The position numbers were made by a program, and so were the translations under genes. The notes below the pieces were generated by a model, which saw nothing but the letters and a program-made list of their open reading frames with translations, did no database searches and was not told the DNA's origin. From the IMG/VR virus record IMGVR_UViG_3300015607_003363, positions 43,910 to 107,909 of that record: DNA of 64,000 nucleotides; one strand, given 5' to 3'. This DNA comes from a virus. Lineage: Duplodnaviria; Caudoviricetes. This document shows positions 8,759 through 56,277 of this stretch, piece by piece; positions within the stretch are counted from its first letter, which is position 1; each line of letters begins with the position of its first letter.

Positions 8759-9784
8759 ATGGGTCAAATCATCATAAAACCGGCGATCAACAGACAACAC
8801 AGCCAGCAAGCTAGGCGAATTGTCAATGTGAAATCGCCGACGATCACTAGGAAACGAATGCCGCCGACCCAAGTAGCGTCGGCGGCAGATCGTTTACGCG
8901 ATTTCGTCAAACCGACAATTATAATCAAGCCACAGCCAAAGCAGCAGGATATAAAAAACAATGGGATTATGATCGATCGGTCGCCACGATCCATCAGGCC
9001 ATCACGGCCATCAGTGCCAGTCAACAAGCGCGGCCCTGTGATCAAACGCATCACTAGTGAAGTATCAGAAAAAGACGTTCAGGCGATTGTAAGATTAAAA
9101 GATACCTGCAGAAATAGAATTCTGGTGATAATGGGTAATGGTCCTTCGCTGGCCGAAGTAGATACGTCAAAGCTGGTCGGACTTGAGTATGTTGACACAC
9201 TTATAGTCAATAAGCCAGATGAGAGATGCTGGCCGACGAACTATTGGGTCTTTTTTGATGCTTCTCAATATCAGCGCAACAAGGACAAATGGGAATCCTA
9301 TAATGGCACTATCTTTACGAGCAATGCTATAAAAGCGGAAAAACCGAAATCAATTAAATTGAAAAATGTTCCTACCGGTGGTTTTCAGCGTGATCTGTCG
9401 AAAGGCATTCATATAGGGCGATCTTCAGTATATGCCAGCATTCAAATAGGTATCTGGCTTGGTTATCAAAGAATATACATCCTTGGGTGTGACATGTCTG
9501 ATGTCGCCGGGAAAGTGCATTATTATGGTGTCAATCCTGATGTAAATCCAGAAGAGCGTAAACGTCGATTTGATGGGGAGGCGAAATTTTATTCTGATGC
9601 TGTTAAATCATTGTCTGAATCAGAGAGAAACAATATCATTTTCTGCTCGTCCTATCTGAAATATCAATTTGTGAATAAGTATCAAAAGATCGATCATAAG
9701 TTCGCCATCGAATTCATTACGCATGATTCGATTAAGATACGATCGTTACATGAAGCCAGGCAGATAGTGGAGAAGATGCAGTGA
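8759..9784 (+). CDS. DUF115/MAF-like (sialyltransferase-fold) glycosyltransferase with basic disordered N-terminus
   Basis: ILVIMGNGPSL, YWVFFD, SSVYASIQIGIWLGYQRIYILGCDM, HYY. Confidence 0.7.
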   Translation: MGQIIIKPAINRQHSQQARRIVNVKSPTITRKRMPPTQVASAADRLRDFVKPTIIIKPQPKQQDIKNNGIMIDRSPRSIRPSRPSVPVNKRGPVIKRITSEVSEKDVQAIVRLKDTCRNRILVIMGNGPSLAEVDTSKLVGLEYVDTLIVNKPDERCWPTNYWVFFDASQYQRNKDKWESYNGTIFTSNAIKAEKPKSIKLKNVPTGGFQRDLSKGIHIGRSSVYASIQIGIWLGYQRIYILGCDMSDVAGKVHYYGVNPDVNPEERKRRFDGEAKFYSDAVKSLSESERNNIIFCSSYLKYQFVNKYQKIDHKFAIEFITHDSIKIRSLHEARQIVEKMQ

Positions 9785-10182
9785 AAATCTACACAGCTAG
9801 CAAGTTAGCTAATGCCGAAGCAGTCAATGCCTTTAACGGTCTTTTGAAGCAGGCCGGTTTTGAAGTCACTTATGAATGGGCTACTCATGGTTATATCGAC
9901 AATTCTGATTCTGAACTGAAGAGGAAAGTCGCCCAGAATGAAATGGAGGGAGTGGCGAAAGCCGATTATCTGGTTGTGCTTCACCCCGGTGGTTTCGGAA
10001 CCCATATTGAGATAGGTGTTGCTTTAGCGATGAATATTCCTATTATTATGATTGGTTTCGATAAGACTCAACCAACTCCTTCGTTTTATTATTTGGATAG
10101 TATTACAATGTTTGATGGTATCACAGAAAGTATAGACTTTCTGTTAGCGTATAAGGACCGACAATGCAAATTGACATCATGA
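9781..10182 (+). CDS. Nucleoside 2-deoxyribosyltransferase / dNMP N-glycosidase-like protein
   Basis: KIYTAS, EMEGVAKADYLV, GTHIEIGVALA (catalytic Glu retained). Confidence 0.75.
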   Translation: MKIYTASKLANAEAVNAFNGLLKQAGFEVTYEWATHGYIDNSDSELKRKVAQNEMEGVAKADYLVVLHPGGFGTHIEIGVALAMNIPIIMIGFDKTQPTPSFYYLDSITMFDGITESIDFLLAYKDRQCKLTS

Positions 10183-10805
10183 ATGATACTGACATCAGTA
10201 TCATCACTCGGTTTTTAAATGATGACAGAATTGATACGGTCGCATGTTCTCCGGGCCTGTCTGGTAGTTTGATGGCTTTGAAACGCAAGCTTGCAGCTAA
10301 ATTCAAGATTATAGTTCACACCGATTGGGATAATGGTACCTCCAACGGGATAGACAAGTTTATAGGATTTTCTGCTGATGATCTGAATGCCGATGGTTTT
10401 GAAATTCACACCAAGATTTCCAATGACACGATTCAAAAGAACATCGATAGTATCAATGCGGCTTATGATTTTATTGTAGAACAAATCAATCCGGAGGCTT
10501 CGCTTTGTCTGGCGTTTCGACATGATAATAATCTGATTAATAGTGACTTGCTGCGTAAACTGCCTAGGCCGGAAGAATACAGATTCGGCATTGAGCATAA
10601 GCCTCCTACAGTATCGTTTAGCTATCGGACTTATGGTTCTGTTATTGAGAAATTGAAGAATATTATCGGGCCAGAGTATTGTATTAAGATTTGTGGAAAT
10701 ATTGATTCTAAAATCGCCGTATCAACTGTAAACTCCATAGAAGGTAATATTAAGTGTATTTTGAGCGCGAGACAGTTCACAACGTATCTCAAAGACAAGA
10801 GGTGA
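10164..10805 (+). CDS. Degenerate DeoC-like (aldolase TIM-barrel) protein
   Basis: IIVHTDWDNG...DKF...LNADGFEI...IKICGNI parallels DeoC (V.GFP.G...K...GADEID...IKASGG); the Schiff-base Lys is not evident. Confidence 0.4.
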   Translation: MQIDIMNDTDISIITRFLNDDRIDTVACSPGLSGSLMALKRKLAAKFKIIVHTDWDNGTSNGIDKFIGFSADDLNADGFEIHTKISNDTIQKNIDSINAAYDFIVEQINPEASLCLAFRHDNNLINSDLLRKLPRPEEYRFGIEHKPPTVSFSYRTYGSVIEKLKNIIGPEYCIKICGNIDSKIAVSTVNSIEGNIKCILSARQFTTYLKDKR

Positions 10806-10809
10806 CACC

Positions 10810-10959
10810 ATGTCGAATAAGACAACTACACCAAGAATCAGATGCCTCATAAAGAATATTAATCGTCTTCACATGGCATCCGAGGATTTGAAAGCTAGGT
10901 CGCTTATCCGGTCTATTCTCAATAAGAGCAGAAGGCCATCTAAGAAATCTGCGAAATAG
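10810..10959 (+). CDS. Small basic protein (49 aa, MSNKTTTPRIRCLIKNINRL...)
   Basis: GAGGTG RBS and ATG 10810; fills the gap before purZ; below the ORF-track cutoff. Confidence 0.5.
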   Translation: MSNKTTTPRIRCLIKNINRLHMASEDLKARSLIRSILNKSRRPSKKSAK

Positions 10960-10990
10960 GCCACTACCACATAGCCCGGAGAATGTTTCC

Positions 10991-12142
10991 ATGAAGCAAG
11001 GTAAGTTCAATGTTCTGTTTGATTCAGCTTGGGGTAGTAGTGGTAAAGGTGCCGCTGCCGCTAGGCTAGGATCTATTTTTGGGATTGACGCAGCGTCTTC
11101 CAACAATTTCCCAAATGCCGGGCATACTGTCGTAAAAGACGGCGAGAAGTATGTGTTTAAAGTTCTTCCATCGCCAGCCGCCCTATTGAAATCGGCTAGG
11201 AAAGAAATCAAATTGGTGATCGGACCAACTTCTGGTTTCTTCCTTGATCAATTATTTAAAGAAATCAAGCAGGTATCAAAAGATGGTACTGGTAATGATG
11301 TCAGCCTGATTGTTCACAGTAGAGCGTCTATCGTTTCTGACCGACATACGGAAATGGAGTCGCCTAATGGCGACATGTCCACGCTTCATATTTCATCGAC
11401 TATGAGTGGTAGCGGTGCCGCTGCTGCTGAGAAGATGATGCGAAAGAAATCCGCTGTCATTGTTGCCAGTCTGAGAGACGGCGCAAAGACAACGATCTTG
11501 GAGCCTATTGACTTTTATTCTTATATTAGAAGTATGATTATAGAAAACCAGAAAATATGGCTTCATGAAGTATCGCAGGGCTGGGCGTTGTCTCTGAATT
11601 GCGGAACTCACTATCCGACATGCACATTCAGAGACTGTACACCACAACAGGCATATGCTGACATGTGCATTACGCCAGATATGATTGGCGATGTCTACAT
11701 GAATATCAGGTCGTTTCCTATTCGAGTGGGAAATAACTATGATGGCCAGAATATAGTTGGATATTCTGGTGATTTTCTCCATGATCAGAAGGAAATGACG
11801 TGGGAGGAAGTCGGCCATGGTGCGGAAATGCCACCAGATTATATAGCGAAGTTGGCCGAAAATGAGAGGACGACTGTGACGAAAAAGATTAGGCGCGTAG
11901 CCACTCAATCGTGGAAGCTAGTGGCGAATAGTGCAAAACTTTCGGGCGCGACTAAATTGATTTTGAATTTCCCTCAATATATCCATTTCTCGGCACTGAG
12001 TGTCAGAGGAGGTATTTCTGACTTTAAGAAAATGCATCATAAAATTCATGAATATGTTGATAAATTACAGACTATTACCAATCTGCCGGTGGTCATGATC
12101 GGTACTGGTGCCGACCATGACGATTTTGTGTGGCTGGTGTAA
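10991..12142 (+). CDS. purZ: PurZ-type N6-succino-2-amino-2'-deoxyadenylate synthase (PurA paralogue)
   Basis: WGSSGKG (Ser replaces the PurA Asp of GDEGKG), PNAGHT, YPTCTFRDCT, PIRVG, SG...DQKEMTWEE, TTVTKKIRRV, LNF.QY in place of PurA TKLD. Confidence 0.85.
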   Translation: MKQGKFNVLFDSAWGSSGKGAAAARLGSIFGIDAASSNNFPNAGHTVVKDGEKYVFKVLPSPAALLKSARKEIKLVIGPTSGFFLDQLFKEIKQVSKDGTGNDVSLIVHSRASIVSDRHTEMESPNGDMSTLHISSTMSGSGAAAAEKMMRKKSAVIVASLRDGAKTTILEPIDFYSYIRSMIIENQKIWLHEVSQGWALSLNCGTHYPTCTFRDCTPQQAYADMCITPDMIGDVYMNIRSFPIRVGNNYDGQNIVGYSGDFLHDQKEMTWEEVGHGAEMPPDYIAKLAENERTTVTKKIRRVATQSWKLVANSAKLSGATKLILNFPQYIHFSALSVRGGISDFKKMHHKIHEYVDKLQTITNLPVVMIGTGADHDDFVWLV

Positions 12143-12179
12143 ATATAGTATAACAACAGTTACAAAGAAGGTGCGTGTA

Positions 12180-13808
12180 GTGGCAGAAGCTAAGCGTGAT
12201 ATTGCTTTGTATGTTGGATTTGAAAATGATCCGATAATTATTGATTTTGTCAGTGGTATGACACGTCGTGCATTAGGCGATAAGTATAAGAAATCACACC
12301 GTGCCATAGAGTCTTATATTAGAAGAAGAAGAGTTAATGATGTTGCTGATGTAGTACAGTTACATGATAAAGAATGGTTGACTGGTAAGTTGTCAGATGG
12401 GTGGACTTTAAATCAGATAGCCGAGTCATTAAAAGTTCATAGGGAACATGTTAGAAAGGCTATCAAATCTCATCAAATTGATATTTATAAAGTGTTTCAG
12501 ATGAGAGCCAGTAAGATATCAGGCAGGACATTATCATATAGCAGTGTCAAGGAATTATATGATAGTAAAAAGTCAACTATTGATATAGCTAGATATTTCG
12601 GTTTTTCTGGTGACAGTGTTATCCGTGATTTTATGAGGAAGAATGGTATAATTATTAGAAAGAATGGTGAGCACCAAATAAAACATGACAATCCAAAACA
12701 ATTATTAGCTCAATTGTCTGATCGATCTGTCATGCATAGACTGTATGTTGAGCAAGAGTTGTCTTCGACTGATATTGCTGATCGGCTTGGCTGTAATGGT
12801 GTGTTGGTGCAACGATGGTTGCGCAGGCATAAATTTAAGATCAGACACCATTCTGACTATTGGGCTAGGCGTAAGATCGGTGAATTACATCAATCATTCA
12901 TAAACTTGTTAAATAATTATTCTGTTAAGCATCAGACGTGTTTCGTATATTCTGGGCGTTATAATGGGAAGAATAGGGTATTTGAAATCGATGAATACCT
13001 GCCTGATCTGAAAGTTTTCATAGAAGTTAATGGCGATCATTGGCATGGTATTTCTAGAAGACACTGGAAATATCAAAGAGTTAGAAACAAATTATGGTCT
13101 GATTTGATTAAATATTTATGCGTTACACGAGACTATCCAGATCACAGATTTATATACGTTACAGACAATAACGTAACAGATGCATTCGTTTCGAGGCTTG
13201 CTGGAACTGCGAAATCTGAATATGCCAGTATTGATAGGCAGAATTTTAATATAGACCAATGCTCGTATGCCGATACTGCTCAATTTTTGATTGACAATCA
13301 CTATTTAGGTCCTACTAAAGGTAGAAGATATTATAGATTAATGGTCGGTGGTAGCACGGCGGCTATTGCCGTTGTTGCTTCCCCGACTAGAGCAGAGATA
13401 AAATTGAGTACCGGCCAGGAATGTCTTGAAATAACGCGATTGGCATCTTCAGATATTGGGCAAAATGGTCTGAGTTACTTTTTGGCAAGAGTGCTTCGTA
13501 ACGAGGCGCGGATTAATGATGCTGCTGGTATTGTGTCATTTGCCGACCAGAGTCCATTGTACAAACAACAGCATTGGGGGACTATATATAGAGCGTGTAA
13601 TTTTAAATTGATTTCAAGAACCGGATGGAATTATCGGTATTATAATTGTGATACTGATGAATTGATTCATAAGAAGACTATTTATAATCGTGCTGTTAAA
13701 TTGGATATGACTGAGTCAGAGTTTGTTAAAATTAATAGCCTCCACAAAATTCCTGAATGGCCTAAATTAAAATATGAGTATCTATTTGATCGATGTGGTC
13801 CGCATTAA
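12180..13808 (+). CDS. 3x HTH + Vsr/DUF559-like endonuclease + Mom-like GNAT fusion
   Basis: Three HTH repeats; FEIDEYLPDLKVFIEVNGDHWHG; NHYLG...LEITRLAS...IVSFADQ...HWGTIYRACNF. The start is uncertain (12171, 12180 or 12258). Confidence 0.72.
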   Translation: MAEAKRDIALYVGFENDPIIIDFVSGMTRRALGDKYKKSHRAIESYIRRRRVNDVADVVQLHDKEWLTGKLSDGWTLNQIAESLKVHREHVRKAIKSHQIDIYKVFQMRASKISGRTLSYSSVKELYDSKKSTIDIARYFGFSGDSVIRDFMRKNGIIIRKNGEHQIKHDNPKQLLAQLSDRSVMHRLYVEQELSSTDIADRLGCNGVLVQRWLRRHKFKIRHHSDYWARRKIGELHQSFINLLNNYSVKHQTCFVYSGRYNGKNRVFEIDEYLPDLKVFIEVNGDHWHGISRRHWKYQRVRNKLWSDLIKYLCVTRDYPDHRFIYVTDNNVTDAFVSRLAGTAKSEYASIDRQNFNIDQCSYADTAQFLIDNHYLGPTKGRRYYRLMVGGSTAAIAVVASPTRAEIKLSTGQECLEITRLASSDIGQNGLSYFLARVLRNEARINDAAGIVSFADQSPLYKQQHWGTIYRACNFKLISRTGWNYRYYNCDTDELIHKKTIYNRAVKLDMTESEFVKINSLHKIPEWPKLKYEYLFDRCGPH

Positions 13809-13866
13809 TCGGCTGGTCGATAGTATTATACTAGTGTAGGATTGCACTACACTTAGGAGATAGCCG

Positions 13867-14460
13867 ATGTCTGCCGAGATCGTTAATCAGTATGATGAGA
13901 AGTTGACTGCACTTGGCCTGACACCTGACAAGGTCGTTTTCTTTTTGAATAATGATCTTGTCAAGGTGCCATGCACTGTACATGGGCTTGGTAAGAATGG
14001 ATGCTTTTCTGTTCTCTTTGAGGAAGGAAGCGAATTGCAGGAAGTGCACTCTTCGCGAATCGTCTTCGATGCCTCTGCCATATATGTAAAGCCAAAGGTG
14101 GTCAAGGAGGCACAAGAGCCGAAGGCCAAGCATGCCCCTGTCAAGGTGGTTTGCCAGTTTAGCATCGATGATTTCGTTTTGGCTTTTCCTAAGGCTCGGT
14201 TGTATAGCCGAGTTGCTGAGAAATTCGATCACGAAGGCTTCAGTGTTTTGTCGCATGTGGCCATTCTCGACGATAATACCAAGGCCAATTTCAATTCGTA
14301 CAACGGCATTATCTATGGTAAGCTTAGTGCCGATGAACATACCAGACTTACCAACGGCGAATGGATTAAATTGACCTCGTCAATTAAGGATCTTGCCAAG
14401 TTAGAGAACAAGCTCGTTGAGGGGCAATATGTCAGACATGGTGAAAAGTCAAAATCCTGA
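13867..14460 (+). CDS. Hypothetical protein
   Basis: AGGAG RBS; 197 aa. Confidence 0.75.
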   Translation: MSAEIVNQYDEKLTALGLTPDKVVFFLNNDLVKVPCTVHGLGKNGCFSVLFEEGSELQEVHSSRIVFDASAIYVKPKVVKEAQEPKAKHAPVKVVCQFSIDDFVLAFPKARLYSRVAEKFDHEGFSVLSHVAILDDNTKANFNSYNGIIYGKLSADEHTRLTNGEWIKLTSSIKDLAKLENKLVEGQYVRHGEKSKS

Positions 14461-14704
14461 GCCGATTATAAAGGCTTCTCTGGATTTCATGACTAGACTG
14501 AATGTGATTTCCAATAAGGAATTAAGGAAATCACTTCAGTCTGAGTTCGTTAAGATATTAGATATGGCATTGGCTAACTTCTCACAATATATAGAAATTA
14601 TACAACGAGCCGATGATCTTATGGCGGATTTGTCATTAGAATCGACTAAGACTGCATTTGATATAGAGTGCCAAGTGCGAGAAATCGAGAGTGACAGTAA
14701 ATAA
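14429..14704 (+). CDS. Hypothetical helical protein
   Basis: GAGGGG RBS before ATG 14429. Confidence 0.6.
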   Translation: MSDMVKSQNPEPIIKASLDFMTRLNVISNKELRKSLQSEFVKILDMALANFSQYIEIIQRADDLMADLSLESTKTAFDIECQVREIESDSK

Positions 14705-14725
14705 TCCGTCTATTGGAGTTAGTAG

Positions 14726-15796
14726 ATGGATTATGCAAAGTACAAGGCCATTCAGGCCGGTGGTGCTACAGATCGTTTCAATCTGATGAAAGCAACACTC
14801 TGCGAATCTGGACGGGTTAGCACAATCAAGAATAATAAAGTGGTTGTGTTTGGTGGGCATGGTTTCGTTGGAAAGAACCTTCTTAATTACCTATCCGGAA
14901 GATTTTATTTATCCGGAAGATATCGGGTTTTCGCTCCATCTAGAATTGAGTGCGACTGTTTTTCCTTGGATGAGTGTGTCGAATATATTTCAACGATCCA
15001 GCCCGGTTATGTCGTCAATTTAGCTGCTTTTGTCGGCGGGATTGGTTTAAATAAAGCTTACCCGTTCACTATGGGTATGACCAACGCCAGTATTTGTTTG
15101 AATGTTTTGAATGCTATTATGCAACAGAGTCATGGTAGTCCAAAGCTGATTCAAGTCGGTACTGTGTGCATGTATCCTTGTGTGCCGACGACTATTCCCT
15201 TCAAGGAAGAAGAAATCTGGAATGGAATTCCGGAGATCACCAATGCTCCTTATGGACTGGCGAAGAAGTTCGTCGGGTATCTTGCCAAATGTGCTAACAT
15301 GGAACACGGATTAAATGTAGTCAATTTGATTCCAACTAATATGTATGGTGAGCATGATGACTTCAGTGATAACGCAAGCCATGTTATTCCAGCAATGATA
15401 AAGAAAATCTATCTGGCCAATCGGGACAAGACCGAGCTTGTCTTATGGGGTGATGGTTCGCCGACTAGGGAATTCCTTTTTGTCGATGATTTTTGCCATG
15501 CGATTCTGGCGGCAATTGAGACTGATGATGCTGTGGCTAATTCTGGCGAGTTTATCAATATTGGAAGTGGATATGAAGTGCGTATGAACGATCTGGTAAA
15601 AATGATTATTGATGAATTTGGCTATGATGATATGGTTGTGCAATGGGATAAGTCAAAGCCTAATGGCCAGCCAAGAAGAGCCATCGATACGAGTCGGGCT
15701 AAGGAGCTATTGAATTTTCAGGCCCGGACGGAATTTAAAGCTGGATTAAATCAGACTATCAACTGGTTTAAGCACAATATAGCCCCTTTGCTTTAA
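14726..15796 (+). CDS. fcl: GDP-L-fucose synthase
   Basis: GGHGFVG, NLAAFVGGIG, GTVCMYP, PYGLAKK, PTNMYG, SHVIPA, WGDGSPTREF, KPNGQPRR. Confidence 0.9.
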   Translation: MDYAKYKAIQAGGATDRFNLMKATLCESGRVSTIKNNKVVVFGGHGFVGKNLLNYLSGRFYLSGRYRVFAPSRIECDCFSLDECVEYISTIQPGYVVNLAAFVGGIGLNKAYPFTMGMTNASICLNVLNAIMQQSHGSPKLIQVGTVCMYPCVPTTIPFKEEEIWNGIPEITNAPYGLAKKFVGYLAKCANMEHGLNVVNLIPTNMYGEHDDFSDNASHVIPAMIKKIYLANRDKTELVLWGDGSPTREFLFVDDFCHAILAAIETDDAVANSGEFINIGSGYEVRMNDLVKMIIDEFGYDDMVVQWDKSKPNGQPRRAIDTSRAKELLNFQARTEFKAGLNQTINWFKHNIAPLL

Positions 15797-15847
15797 TGTT
15801 AATTCGAATGTTAATTTAAAATTACGATTAACATTCAAAGGTGATAG

Positions 15848-16636
15848 ATGCACACACCGCTTTTTCGATCGCTAGCATTCAAGAATAGATCATTCTGGTC
15901 TGTGTTTGCTATTCGAATGCTTTCTCCTATGAGTCTTCCTGTCGGGTGTCGTGATTTGACATCTGTTATCTATGATTCCTCGAAGCAATTATCTCCGGCG
16001 TATTTTAATCAGAATGCCGACCAGATCAATTATGATAAAATAGTCCGGTATGCACTAGATGTATCCAAGACTTTACTTGTTGATTTTTTGGATGGCGAAT
16101 CGTTGAGTTACTATGAATACTTTGAGATCAATGAGAGCCTGATTGAATTTTTTGTGAAGATTCATATTGCCAATGCTAATGTATGGGACAATGAAGATCC
16201 GTGTCGCCAGTATACTGGCACCGGTGATCTGAGTCATATTCCTAAATGCAAACAGGGAATTGATATAGCTAATCAGAGACGAAATGATCTGGTCGAAAAA
16301 TGTGATGATGTATTTTGTGCGTCAATTGCCACTTATGGGCTTCCGATAGATCGAAATGCCCGTCTGGCATCTGAAGGCCTTGGATCGCTCTTAGATCGTA
16401 TGAGCATAAATTCATTAAAGTTGTATCATACGACACTCTTAACACACGAAAAACAAGGTGATATGAGAGACAAGTTAATAGGGAAAATCGGTGCGATTAT
16501 AAATCAAAATATGATGCTTGCCACTCAATGCGATAATATGATCTATGATATGCTACATGGCAACTTGACATATATCAAGTTCAAGCAATATAAGCTGTAT
16601 AATTCGGCAGATACTAATTCACATTATCAGCGATAG
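15848..16636 (+). CDS. DUF4254-family protein with N-terminal extension
   Basis: WDNED..R, IDIANQRRNDLVE, SEGLGSLLDRMSI..LK.YH, KQYKLYN. Confidence 0.7.
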   Translation: MHTPLFRSLAFKNRSFWSVFAIRMLSPMSLPVGCRDLTSVIYDSSKQLSPAYFNQNADQINYDKIVRYALDVSKTLLVDFLDGESLSYYEYFEINESLIEFFVKIHIANANVWDNEDPCRQYTGTGDLSHIPKCKQGIDIANQRRNDLVEKCDDVFCASIATYGLPIDRNARLASEGLGSLLDRMSINSLKLYHTTLLTHEKQGDMRDKLIGKIGAIINQNMMLATQCDNMIYDMLHGNLTYIKFKQYKLYNSADTNSHYQR

Positions 16637-16638
16637 TA

Positions 16639-17553
16639 TTGTCTCATTTTCTACGGAGACAGAATGTGAAACTGGCATTTATTCAGGTGGCTTCGTGGGG
16701 TGACTGCTGTAATTCGACGATGATGTTCCGCCCGTTGCTGAACAAATACGTTGGTGCTCAGCTGCATGTTTTCACATCTATTCCATATCAGTCGGCTTTT
16801 CTCAATAATCCGCTTATTACGGCTATTCATGCTTCGCCTGCTGCTGGTAAGCATGAAGCATTTAGCTTATACGATACTCTACCTGATCAAGTTCGTAAAA
16901 TGGGCATATTTGACAAGATCTATTGCCCGGCTCCGATTTTGATGGGAGGTCGTCGTAATAGCCTTAGACATCCAGAAGTAGGAGAGAATCTATGGTGCTC
17001 ATTCTGGAGAGCCTTGGAGGAAGATGATGTGCCATATGAGATTCCGTTGTTGGCCGAGATCACGCTGACTGTTATGGAGCAGGCCTCAGCTAAATACTTT
17101 CTTAGTCAGATGCAGAAGCCAAAGGCTGGTAAAAAGAGAGTGTTAATGGAATGCTATGCCGAAAGCGGTCAGACATATTGGAATGAGCAGTGGATGGATC
17201 AGGTCGCCAGACTATTATTAGATCAGGGTCATCAGGTTATCTTGAGCAATAAAAGCTCCACTAAGGCTATCAGTGCCTTAGTCAAAGCAGGGGCGATCTT
17301 GGTGACTCTACCACTTCGTGAGTGCATTGAGATCTTTAATCACTCTGATATGTTTATTAGTATTAGTAGTGGATTCTGCAATGCATGTCGGTCAACTGCG
17401 GCTACTAAATCTGATGGTATATGGCTTGAGGCTGTTAATAGCCCGACAGTATCTAGTCGGACTCTGGTGAGAAAGGGTGCGACCGGAGTCAACGAATTCT
17501 ATTATGAAAACGACTTAAAGGGCTTTCTTAGGCTAGTCAGGAAACATGTCTAA
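16639..17553 (+). CDS. GT9 (heptosyltransferase-like) glycosyltransferase
   Basis: WGDCCNST...L.NNP.I; LPLRECIEIFNHSDMFISISSG; adjacent to DUF4254. Confidence 0.65.
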   Translation: MSHFLRRQNVKLAFIQVASWGDCCNSTMMFRPLLNKYVGAQLHVFTSIPYQSAFLNNPLITAIHASPAAGKHEAFSLYDTLPDQVRKMGIFDKIYCPAPILMGGRRNSLRHPEVGENLWCSFWRALEEDDVPYEIPLLAEITLTVMEQASAKYFLSQMQKPKAGKKRVLMECYAESGQTYWNEQWMDQVARLLLDQGHQVILSNKSSTKAISALVKAGAILVTLPLRECIEIFNHSDMFISISSGFCNACRSTAATKSDGIWLEAVNSPTVSSRTLVRKGATGVNEFYYENDLKGFLRLVRKHV

Positions 17554-43673: not shown

Positions 43674-44505
43674 TTTCAATAACTCTGTTACACAATTTAA
43701 TAACGGCATATCTACTATGCCAACGCCGAATCACCCAATAGGTCTGACTCAGTTGTCTGATCTTAATACGCCAGTTATTGGCAGTATTTCGATGCCTAAG
43801 CCCGGTCAGACTGATATATTGACCGGCAATCAAATGTGGACTGCTCCTTCTGATATTCATGATTTTACGGAGCCTGCTCTAAGACCGCTGGAAGAATCGA
43901 TGAAGATGTTCTTTTCTGGCATTAGAGTCCCTTATAAGGACGGATATCGGATGCTGAGGATCAGGATTGCTAATCCTCAGCGTGCTCTAGCGATTTGGCG
44001 TGATGAGTTGCTGGATGGTCGTGCTACTATTCCGGTCGGAGCTATTATTCGTGGCGGGTTCGACTATGACCGGACTAGGTATGCTCCTCCATACCATCCT
44101 ATGGCCTATCGATATAATAATCGATCAGGATCTTCTGTATCCATGGTGTATAAGCCCACTCCGATCAATGTGACTTATAGCTTGTCTGTGATGACTGAAT
44201 CGAAGACCGATGAAGGCCATTGTATGACTTCGATCATGCGTCGATTTCAGTCTGGTATTGCCGAATTTGTTGTCAATAGTGCTTACTCTCAATGGGTTGC
44301 TCGTGCCAATTATTCTGGCTCTGACACTCAAACTGAGCAGAGAGTTGATGATGGAGCTAAATCATTTGTTGTAACTGTATATAAGATGTCTGTGGAAGCT
44401 TGGCTTCCTCTGCCAGAGAGGTCAGTGCCTACTACTTTGGCCATCAACAGACAAATAGAGGCTGCAGACGGCACTACATTATTGCAGCAGAACGCATGGG
44501 GCTAA
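43663..44505 (+). CDS. Tail terminator / sheath stabiliser (gp15-like)
   Basis: IPVGAI.R.GFDYDRTR, PTPINVTYSL, VEAWL; upstream of the sheath gene. Confidence 0.68.
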   Translation: MIHDFNNSVTQFNNGISTMPTPNHPIGLTQLSDLNTPVIGSISMPKPGQTDILTGNQMWTAPSDIHDFTEPALRPLEESMKMFFSGIRVPYKDGYRMLRIRIANPQRALAIWRDELLDGRATIPVGAIIRGGFDYDRTRYAPPYHPMAYRYNNRSGSSVSMVYKPTPINVTYSLSVMTESKTDEGHCMTSIMRRFQSGIAEFVVNSAYSQWVARANYSGSDTQTEQRVDDGAKSFVVTVYKMSVEAWLPLPERSVPTTLAINRQIEAADGTTLLQQNAWG

Positions 44506-54876: not shown

Positions 54877-56277
54877 ATGGCTATCGATTGGGCAAGGACA
54901 TATCTACTATTCAATACCGATGAATTGACTACAAAGTCAAAAATGAAAGTTGCTGTCTATTGTGATAAGTGCAGGAAGGAAAGTACGACACGGCGTGACA
55001 ATCATACATCTAGTATGAATAAGAAAGGCGCGTTTTGGTGCCATCAGTGTGCTATAAATGAGGCACGTGAAAATGGAAAATACATTCGAACGGCAGAACA
55101 GACAGAAGCGGCAAGACAGAGAACTCGTGAATTATGGCAGAATCCTGAATTTAGGTCTAAGGTAGTTGAAATTTCTAAAATCGCACCACAGTCACGAGAG
55201 ATGAGAAAAGAAGCTAGCGATAGAGCTAAAAGGCAGTGGGAGAGTCAGGAATTTAGGAATGCTGTTTCGGCTGGTGTAGAGGCAGCTATGGCTAGACCAG
55301 ATGTGAAAAGGAAAGTAAAAGATGGGTTAAAACGTAGATGGCAAAATGACGACTATAGAAAGAAAATTGCGGCTGTTATTGAAAAGCAGCCGAGGATTAG
55401 CAGTTTACAGTCTGCATTATATGATTATCTTGACGATCTTAACGTTGAATATATTAAAGAAGGTGAGGGTACAGTTGTCGGATGTTATGTCTTTGATTGC
55501 TTGATTCCAAAGCGTGGGAAAATGTCAAAGAGTTTATTGATTGAATGCCATGGAGAATATTGGCATAATCTAGCTAAAAATGCAAGAAATGACAGATCGA
55601 AATTCACTTATATCGACCGATATCATCCAGAATATGAAATCATGTATGTATGGGAGCATGAGTTTATCGCCAATGGTAGAGTATTAGATCGATTAAAAAT
55701 CAAACTAGGAATTGAATTACAAGTACACGATTTTGATTTTAAGTCAGTGACGGTGAGGCCAATTGATTTTGGTATTGCCAATGTTTTTCTTAGGAATTAT
55801 CACTATTTAAAGGGAGGTAAAGGTGGGACACATTTCGGAGCATATATTGAAAATAAACTTATTGCCGTTATAACTTATGCTCACCCTGTTAGACAGAATA
55901 TTGCTTCTGCTATTGGAGTGGAAAAAGTGATAGAATTAGCCAGAATGTGCATCCACCCATCATATCACAAGAAAAATTTCTCAAGTTGGCTTATTTCTAG
56001 AACCATCAAAAGTTTTGAAGTTCCTGTGGTCGCTTTTTCTGATAAGACATTAGGACACGATGGGACGATCTATAAAGCGTCAAATTTTGAGTTACACCAT
56101 GAAGCAGAATCTGATTATTGGTATATTGATGAGGATGGTTACGAAATGCACAAAAGGACTCTTTATCGTCATGCTGTATCGTTGAAAAAGACTGAGGCTG
56201 AATATGCTATAGAACATAAATTCATGAAACAATGGGGCGGTCCAAAATTGTGTTTTGTATATATGCCACGCAAGTAA
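54877..56277 (+). CDS. Zn-finger + helical repeats + Vsr/DUF559-like endonuclease + Mom-like GNAT fusion
   Basis: CDKC..CHQC; W-x-x-x-(E/D)-(F/Y)-R repeats; VFD...LLIECHGEYWH...VWEHE; NYHYL...IELARMC...AFSD..LGHDGTIYKASNF. Confidence 0.75.
   Translation: MAIDWARTYLLFNTDELTTKSKMKVAVYCDKCRKESTTRRDNHTSSMNKKGAFWCHQCAINEARENGKYIRTAEQTEAARQRTRELWQNPEFRSKVVEISKIAPQSREMRKEASDRAKRQWESQEFRNAVSAGVEAAMARPDVKRKVKDGLKRRWQNDDYRKKIAAVIEKQPRISSLQSALYDYLDDLNVEYIKEGEGTVVGCYVFDCLIPKRGKMSKSLLIECHGEYWHNLAKNARNDRSKFTYIDRYHPEYEIMYVWEHEFIANGRVLDRLKIKLGIELQVHDFDFKSVTVRPIDFGIANVFLRNYHYLKGGKGGTHFGAYIENKLIAVITYAHPVRQNIASAIGVEKVIELARMCIHPSYHKKNFSSWLISRTIKSFEVPVVAFSDKTLGHDGTIYKASNFELHHEAESDYWYIDEDGYEMHKRTLYRHAVSLKKTEAEYAIEHKFMKQWGGPKLCFVYMPRK

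Follow-up and report, generated by a model that had tools for sequence, protein, structure and literature searches.

Organization of the locus

We analysed a 64,000-nucleotide stretch of DNA, hereafter called the window, from a virus of the class Caudoviricetes (IMG/VR record IMGVR_UViG_3300015607_003363, positions 43,910 to 107,909). The subject of this report is a gene at window positions 12180-13808, directly behind a homolog of purZ, which encodes a nuclease fused to a domain of the Mom family and which is probably a homing endonuclease gene. The gene purZ makes the unusual DNA base 2-aminoadenine (Z) and is the key gene of Z-genome phages. The record is estimated to be about 30% complete at 108 kb, and relatives with the same genomic backbone measure 234-388 kb.

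The open reading frame (ORF) of the fusion gene spans positions 12108-13808 on the + strand. The GTG at 12180 is likely the start codon, because a Shine-Dalgarno-like GAAGGTG lies 6 nt upstream of it and the homologs align from this position. The stop codon of purZ and this GTG are separated by 37 nt. The features of the locus are as follows (aa, amino acids; HTH, helix-turn-helix; AF2, AlphaFold2).

10991-12142, + strand: purZ-like adenylosuccinate synthetase homolog, the conserved upstream neighbour and putative homing target (PF00709, E 6e-27; phrog_1211, E 9e-49).
12166-12172, + strand: Shine-Dalgarno-like GAAGGTG, 6-7 nt before the GTG, read from the sequence.
12180-13808, + strand: the whole fusion gene, 542 aa, with four HTH modules, a Vsr-like EDxHD nuclease and a Mom-family domain.
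12228-12329, + strand: HTH-like module 1 (aa 17-50), divergent; modelled by AF2 with three helices, no Pfam match.
12351-12473, + strand: HTH module 2 (aa 58-98); sub-threshold Pfam matches to Sigma70_r4, HTH_17 and HTH_11 at aa 73-104, and AF2 helices.
12534-12644, + strand: HTH module 3 (aa 119-155); sub-threshold match to HTH_18 at aa 124-154, and AF2 helices.
12693-12830, + strand: HTH module 4 (aa 172-217); HTH_23 at aa 191-217 (E 2.6e-8), phrog_8446 and phrog_7545 at aa 177-253, and AF2 helices.
12882-13169, + strand: Vsr-like (EDxHD) nuclease (aa 235-330) with D271, N284, H289 and D308; profile match to 3r3p.
13233-13793, + strand: Mom-family GNAT domain (aa 352-538), including a two-helix insertion at aa 498-518; PF25680, and 8bv8 by profile and by Foldseek.

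The base composition of the fusion gene sets it apart from its surroundings. Its GC content is 36.8%, compared to a window mean of 42.8% (standard deviation 2.3, in 1.6-kb segments), which makes it the lowest-GC 1.6-kb stretch within the 64 kb, and its flanks have 44-45% GC. A preliminary description, made from the sequence alone, had called the gene more AT-rich than its flanks and had placed it directly behind purZ, and both statements are borne out. The motifs that it quoted for the nuclease and for Mom are likewise all present in the translation (FEIDEY...FIEVNGDHWHG, NHYLG, LEITRLA, VSFAD and HWGTIYRACNF). We found no direct or inverted repeats of note flanking the gene, and a promoter and terminator scan returned sites no more numerous than in shuffled sequence. 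A nucleotide search of positions 9000-16900 against 50,697 phage records gave no match.

Domain architecture of the fusion protein

An alignment of 68 relatives (A3) was used to build the AF2 model, to search the PDB with a profile and to count conserved residues. The model has a mean pLDDT of 87.9 and is confident over all domains. At the N-terminus it contains four helical HTH-like modules, one more than the three repeats counted in the preliminary description. Pfam HTH matches fall at aa 73-104, 124-154 and 179-225, and module 1, judged by eye, appears to follow a pattern like that of modules 2-4. The four modules gave a poor MAFFT alignment, and we counted them from the AF2 helices and the Pfam matches instead.

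The nuclease domain is modelled as an alpha/beta fold. A phmmer search of the PDB with the single fusion protein found no match, and a profile of eight sequences retrieved HTH-like chains only; the 68-sequence profile was needed to obtain domain matches. With it, the nuclease matched the catalytic domain of I-Bth0305I (3r3p, E 7.4e-13) and, weakly, Vsr itself (1cw0/1vsr), so that the assignment to a Vsr/DUF559-like nuclease in the preliminary description was right. I-Bth0305I is the prototype EDxHD homing endonuclease, and its residues D196, N208, H213 and D222 superimpose on the Vsr active site (PMC3239194). The equivalents in the fusion protein are D271, N284, H289 and D308, within the same IEVNG..WH motif that is common to both proteins. 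Among the 68 relatives, D271 is Asp in 57, the N284 column holds Asn, Gln or His in 56 (H64 in Vsr), H289 is His in 59 and D308 is Asp in 62. A fifth acidic residue (E170 in I-Bth0305I, E25 in Vsr) has a nearby Glu as its candidate counterpart, in the sequence GELHQ, where the column is variable and the region poorly conserved. Judged by the four core residues, the catalytic centre of the nuclease looks intact. I-Bth0305I also resembles the fusion protein in having an N-terminal DNA-binding region, made of NUMOD motifs that may span an HTH; unlike the fusion protein, however, it lacks a Mom domain, and its gene resides within a group I intron of recA.

The C-terminal domain was taken for a Mom-type GNAT in the preliminary description, and three approaches agree. 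PF25680 (Mom), with a cut-off of 27.1 bits, matches aa 356-536 at 54 bits, the 68-relative profile matches phage Mu Mom (8bv8, E 1.3e-13), and a Foldseek search of the PDB with the predicted structure places 8bv8 at rank 1 (E 2e-6, TM 0.64 on the target). PHROG matches of the fusion protein include the Mom-like phrog_1384 and two families named as homing or HNH endonucleases, phrog_3339, which matches the Mom domain through its C-terminal part, and phrog_559, whose match covers nuclease and Mom together. Mu Mom is thus the best structural match, and the two proteins share a two-helix insertion between the last strands; in the AF2 model its helices (aa 498-507 and 512-518) lie between strands, before the last ones, with pLDDT above 90. 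Unlike Mu Mom, the domain stands here behind a nuclease and a sequence-reading head. The dimer residue W48 of Mu Mom is not conserved in the profile alignment.

The active-site residues of Mu Mom are H58, Y59, R111, S124, D149, R151 and Y159 (PMC13219725, published in 2026). All of these except R151, which is taken up below, have identical counterparts in the fusion protein (H374, Y375, R420, S432, D456 and Y470), each kept in 65-68 of the 68 relatives. The catalytic centre of the Mom domain therefore looks intact as well, and its pocket appears, if anything, more conserved than that of the nuclease. Because the catalytic residues are near-invariant, the domain is probably an active enzyme and not a mere DNA-binding or dimerisation module. 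The preliminary description had tied activity to the binding of acetyl-CoA, an expectation that is now out of date, as Mu Mom transfers glycine from Gly-tRNAGly and does not use an acyl-CoA donor; Mom biochemistry is known just for Mu Mom and two homologs (PMC13219725). The window contains no tRNA genes by ARAGORN, so the Mom domains would have to obtain an aminoacyl-tRNA donor from the host or from a portion of the genome that was not sampled.

A second copy and the Hef-like class

The preliminary description implied a second copy of the fusion, and one is present further along the window.

54877-56277, + strand: copy 2, 466 aa, with a Zn-finger-type Cys-rich head and the same nuclease and Mom domains (PF25680, E 2.5e-22; weak MTES_1575).

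The two copies are 26% identical over nuclease and Mom (E 2e-18) and differ in their heads. Copy 2 also has a low GC content (37.8% vs. 46% in its flanks), and it is flanked by an 860-aa ORF on one side and, on the other, by two gp19-like tail-tube genes, which it precedes. When copy 2 was used as a tblastn query, its nuclease and Mom domains aligned to annotated Hef-like homing endonucleases in 180 phage records, among which Campylobacter phages had several Hef-like copies per genome; the same search with copy 1 gave just two weak matches in phages, neither annotated as Hef. In the Hef-like protein of phage CP30A, hidden Markov models built from the family that includes copy 1 recognized both domains (E 4e-12 and 2e-18), and Pfam found nothing. 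An exhaustive HMMER search returned 613 representative clusters at E <= 1e-3. The best 150 of these are mostly proteins of 400-750 aa with a variable N-terminus before the nuclease-Mom core.

The class to which the fusion belongs is therefore already known. Hef-type endonucleases have been placed in the Vsr-like EDxHD family (PMC3239194), and the Hef of the T-even phage U5 is reported to cleave nrdB (PMC2988022). Dickeya phage LIMEstone1 has four free-standing Hef-like genes (F-LimIII, VII, VIII and X), of which F-LimVIII lies by a tail-tube gene (PMC3296691). Both copy 2 and F-LimVIII are thus beside tail-tube genes, which may be a recurrent homing site. The Hef and Hef-like proteins of U5, of Campylobacter phages CP30A, CPX and NCTC12673 and of LIMEstone1 have the same domain order as the fusion protein, a Vsr-like nuclease followed by a Mom-like C-terminal domain, and their genes are free-standing, present in multiple copies and located beside conserved genes, as here. 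Unlike them, copy 1 carries four HTH modules as its head and resides elsewhere, at the 3' end of purZ, and its Mom pocket has been preserved much better than that of CP30A, which has lost the HY motif and the family-invariant His. Iyer, Anantharaman, Krishnan, Burroughs and Aravind described in 2021 fusions of Mom with restriction endonuclease (REase) domains in jumbo phages, with the same architecture and in the same kind of genome, and predicted that they combine restriction with protective modification (PMC7824862, section 3.4.7). However, the fixed site, patchy occurrence and incongruent trees described below favour a homing element, and no link to purZ is reported there. The fresh aspect is thus the HTH lineage that always lies directly behind purZ; our literature searches for purZ together with a homing endonuclease or intein, and for Mom, Vsr and GNAT fusions, found nothing relevant.

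Association with purZ

The nearest relatives of the fusion protein, 35-53% identical, group together in a clade supported at 100%. Seven of its members are informative in that they have a readable context, and in all seven the gene follows purZ immediately on its 3' side and in the same orientation; the two genes overlap by 41 nt at one extreme and are 53 nt apart at the other. Besides the window, these are the members at loci L012 (protein P0002), L002-L004 (P0003), L001 (P0004), L010 and L011 (P0005), L048 (P0009) and L049 (P0010). The next clade out (P0006) is not adjacent to purZ. The HTH-type fusion occurs at 0/34 unbiased IMG/VR purZ loci, at which other nuclease genes were encountered. 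A Zn-type nuclease-Mom gene converges on the 3' end of purZ at two of the 34 (L014, and L017, which is the same contig as L005), and at three of them purZ is immediately preceded by a nuclease gene of the Vsr/DUF559/MTES_1575 type that runs on the opposite strand. Since Hef-type and Vsr-type genes sit on either side of purZ, and inteins within it, purZ is a repeated target, or hot spot, of selfish nucleases. The upstream and intein-borne genes have the following positions.

L020 2516-3973, L022 2078-3523 and L039 2199-3173, - strand: upstream Vsr-type nuclease genes, with a weak Mom-like match (L020) or none.
L001 5783-8041 and L045 2597-5059: intein-interrupted purZ genes, whose inteins carry LAGLIDADG domains.

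The upstream genes on the opposite strand represent a third way in which nucleases occupy the flanks of purZ. At locus L001, a free-standing LAGLIDADG ORF closely precedes purZ as well. Within purZ itself, an invariant block (TT.TKK.RRV) is found some 250 nt ahead of the stop codon.

The presence of the fusion is patchy. The preliminary description suggested a search for purZ alleles without the insert, and related purZ loci that lack the gene were indeed found, one of which, L035, offers an empty site. There purZ is followed immediately by sequence whose homolog in L002 begins about 600 nt past the fusion gene, at the start of the 254-aa gene of L002 (10336-11100). Between the fusion gene of L002 and this gene lie two small ORFs in antisense orientation, which seem to belong to the insert.

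L002 9732-10309, - strand: small antisense ORFs of 132 and 73 aa, which separate the fusion gene from the gene found immediately behind purZ in L035.

Five genomes were checked for Mom-family matches, and the number per genome was zero in G003 (99% complete), G005 and G001, one in G004 and eight in G002. The last is the record of L014, a 362-kb phage. Two of its Mom matches have a single in-frame stop, one TAG and one TGA (e.g. C1:146128-146661 and 123502-124056), and these copies may be decaying or recoded.

We also compared the histories of purZ and of the fusion. The gene order of the window upstream of the fusion (g8759, NDT, g10164, purZ) is common to L002, L030, L034, L035 and L046 and is partly preserved in L032, L033 and L037.

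9781-10805 and 8759-9784 of the window: conserved block upstream of purZ, made up of an NDT-like gene, a gene of 213 aa that matches no family and one resembling DUF115/MptE (weak Pfam match, below threshold).

The tail sheath of the window is 49-51% identical to the sheaths of G003 and G004. The purZ gene of the window belongs to clade A (98% support), and the backbone relatives carry purZ of another deep clade, B. Its nearest counterpart, with 53% identity, is that of L013, a complete 41-kb phage without a detectable sheath homolog; identity to the purZ genes at the syntenic position of the jumbo-phage backbone relatives (L030-L037, L046) is 27-29%. The fusion of the window, for its part, nests inside the clade that is attached to clade-B purZ. 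Between the window and L002, purZ is 28.6% and the fusion 44% identical, compared to 60% and 53%, respectively, between L002 and L012. These pairwise identities and the disagreeing trees led us to reject simple vertical co-inheritance of purZ and fusion. The disagreement of the trees implies that recombination has split purZ from the fusion exactly at their junction, and most simply purZ would have been replaced in place, next to the nuclease gene.

A probable homing endonuclease of the purZ flank

We think it probable that the fusion gene is a free-standing homing endonuclease gene of the Hef-like/EDxHD (Vsr-fold) type, in a lineage that resides in the 3' flank of purZ. Class membership, an intact nuclease, a fixed neighbour, patchy occurrence, an empty site, low GC content and incongruent trees all speak for this reading. 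The preliminary description had suggested homing into purZ, and comparison among phages supports that suggestion well, through the fixed 3' position, presence and absence of the gene, the tree incongruence and the low GC content. From sequence comparison we infer a course for cleavage, target choice, homing and the role of the Mom domain. The four HTH modules would read a long site in or next to the purZ gene of a co-infecting phage that lacks the element, the Vsr-like domain (D271/N284/H289/D308) would cut this site, and recombinational repair would then transfer a copy of the gene to the cleaved genome along with adjoining purZ sequence. The Mom domain would act as a DNA purine-N6 aminoacyl-transferase that uses aminoacyl-tRNA, and its most plausible job would be to mark the recognition site or sites of the element itself and thereby spare the carrier genome. 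Because free-standing homing genes leave their target undisrupted on insertion, a modifier that shares its head with the nuclease could give the carrier immunity.

Several observations weigh against parts of this reading. A near-identical pair of genomes with and without the gene, from which insertion junctions and co-conversion tracts could be read, was not found. The strict same-strand adjacency to purZ fits an operon partner as well, and the members have diverged (35-53% identity) with no sign of recent spread. The residue R151, reported to be essential in Mu Mom, aligns to S458 of the fusion protein, and the column holds Thr or Ser in 60 of 68 relatives, a family-wide difference; a family-invariant extra histidine, H465, lies downstream of the R151-equivalent column (three residues later in our comparison with Mu Mom). 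With regard to self-protection by the Mom domain, two purZ-linked members, P0004 (407 aa) and P0005 (490 aa), have lost the GNAT core by deletion but still possess their HTH modules, the C-terminal tail and a nuclease motif that is intact. These two variants show that the nuclease can persist without an antidote in cis, and an obligate cut-and-protect arrangement is consequently unproven. The single-polypeptide cut-and-protect element proposed in the preliminary description coincides with what Iyer et al. predicted in 2021 (PMC7824862). A Mom copy elsewhere in the genomes of P0004 and P0005 could protect in trans.

The gene might instead be a weapon that resembles a restriction-modification system, in which Mom broadly modifies the adenine or 2-aminoadenine of the phage and spares it from fused or host nucleases while the nuclease degrades DNA that belongs to the host or to competitors. 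This corresponds to the published prediction for the jumbo-phage Mom-REase fusions (PMC7824862, section 3.4.7), and the very strong conservation of the Mom pocket (65-68 of 68 relatives) and the intact active site of the nuclease agree with it. We nevertheless consider it unlikely, since a four-HTH head implies a long, rare site and not bulk modification or degradation, the number of Mom copies varies from 0 to 8 in five genomes with none in the closest complete backbone relative, variants without the GNAT core retain the nuclease, and the position is fixed beside one gene, as it is in homing elements. Loss of mobility is another possibility, with the gene now an immobile resident remnant that has been domesticated, for instance to regulate the purZ region by binding DNA, or has simply not yet decayed. 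Homing genes commonly decay after fixation, the members are old and divergent, and two relatives have internal deletions. Against this stand the full-length ORF, the intact catalytic residues of both nuclease and Mom in copy 1 and an AF2 model that is confident across domains, and we regard such a fate as very improbable.

The preliminary description had also offered the fusion as a partner of PurZ, and this is the explanation to which we give the least credence. The Mom domain would further modify 2-aminoadenine or residual adenine, the gene would be kept near purZ for co-expression, and the nuclease and HTH modules would serve as a DNA-binding scaffold only. The same-strand adjacency in 7/7 members, with tight or overlapping junctions, is what such a partner would show; the Mom residues are conserved, and a second type of Mom fusion converges on purZ in L005/L017 and L014. 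However, G003, with the same backbone and 99% complete, has purZ and no Mom-family gene, and the HTH type is missing from all 34 unbiased purZ loci. Moreover, P0004 and P0005 still have the nuclease but have deleted the GNAT core, the tree of purZ conflicts with that of the fusion, the catalytic residues of the nuclease are conserved although a mere scaffold would have no need of them, and purZ attracts inteins and Mom-less nucleases too.

Returning to the homing endonuclease, we can extend it to a rather unlikely but specific form, in which one head serves both nuclease and Mom in a single-chain 'cut or mark' homing element on 2-aminoadenine DNA. Such a protein would aminoacylate purine N6 in its own site in the carrier, which would become immune with purZ unchanged, would cut the unmarked site in rivals, and would thereby promote the swapping of entire purZ alleles among unrelated phages. 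A hint of such swapping is that the window combines a clade-A purZ with a clade-B backbone.

Implications

The added value of these results is modest, as they define a purZ-specific lineage within a known class of fusions. This lineage nevertheless provides a handle on the role of the Mom domain in Hef-like nucleases, as it combines a defined lineage and a defined neighbour, purZ, with natural Mom-deleted variants and natural empty sites. Most restriction enzymes cannot cut Z-substituted DNA, and the enzymes of the purZ-linked lineage would have to read and cut it. A purZ allele also appears to have passed between unrelated phages at such a junction, and this bears on how the Z-genome trait spreads.

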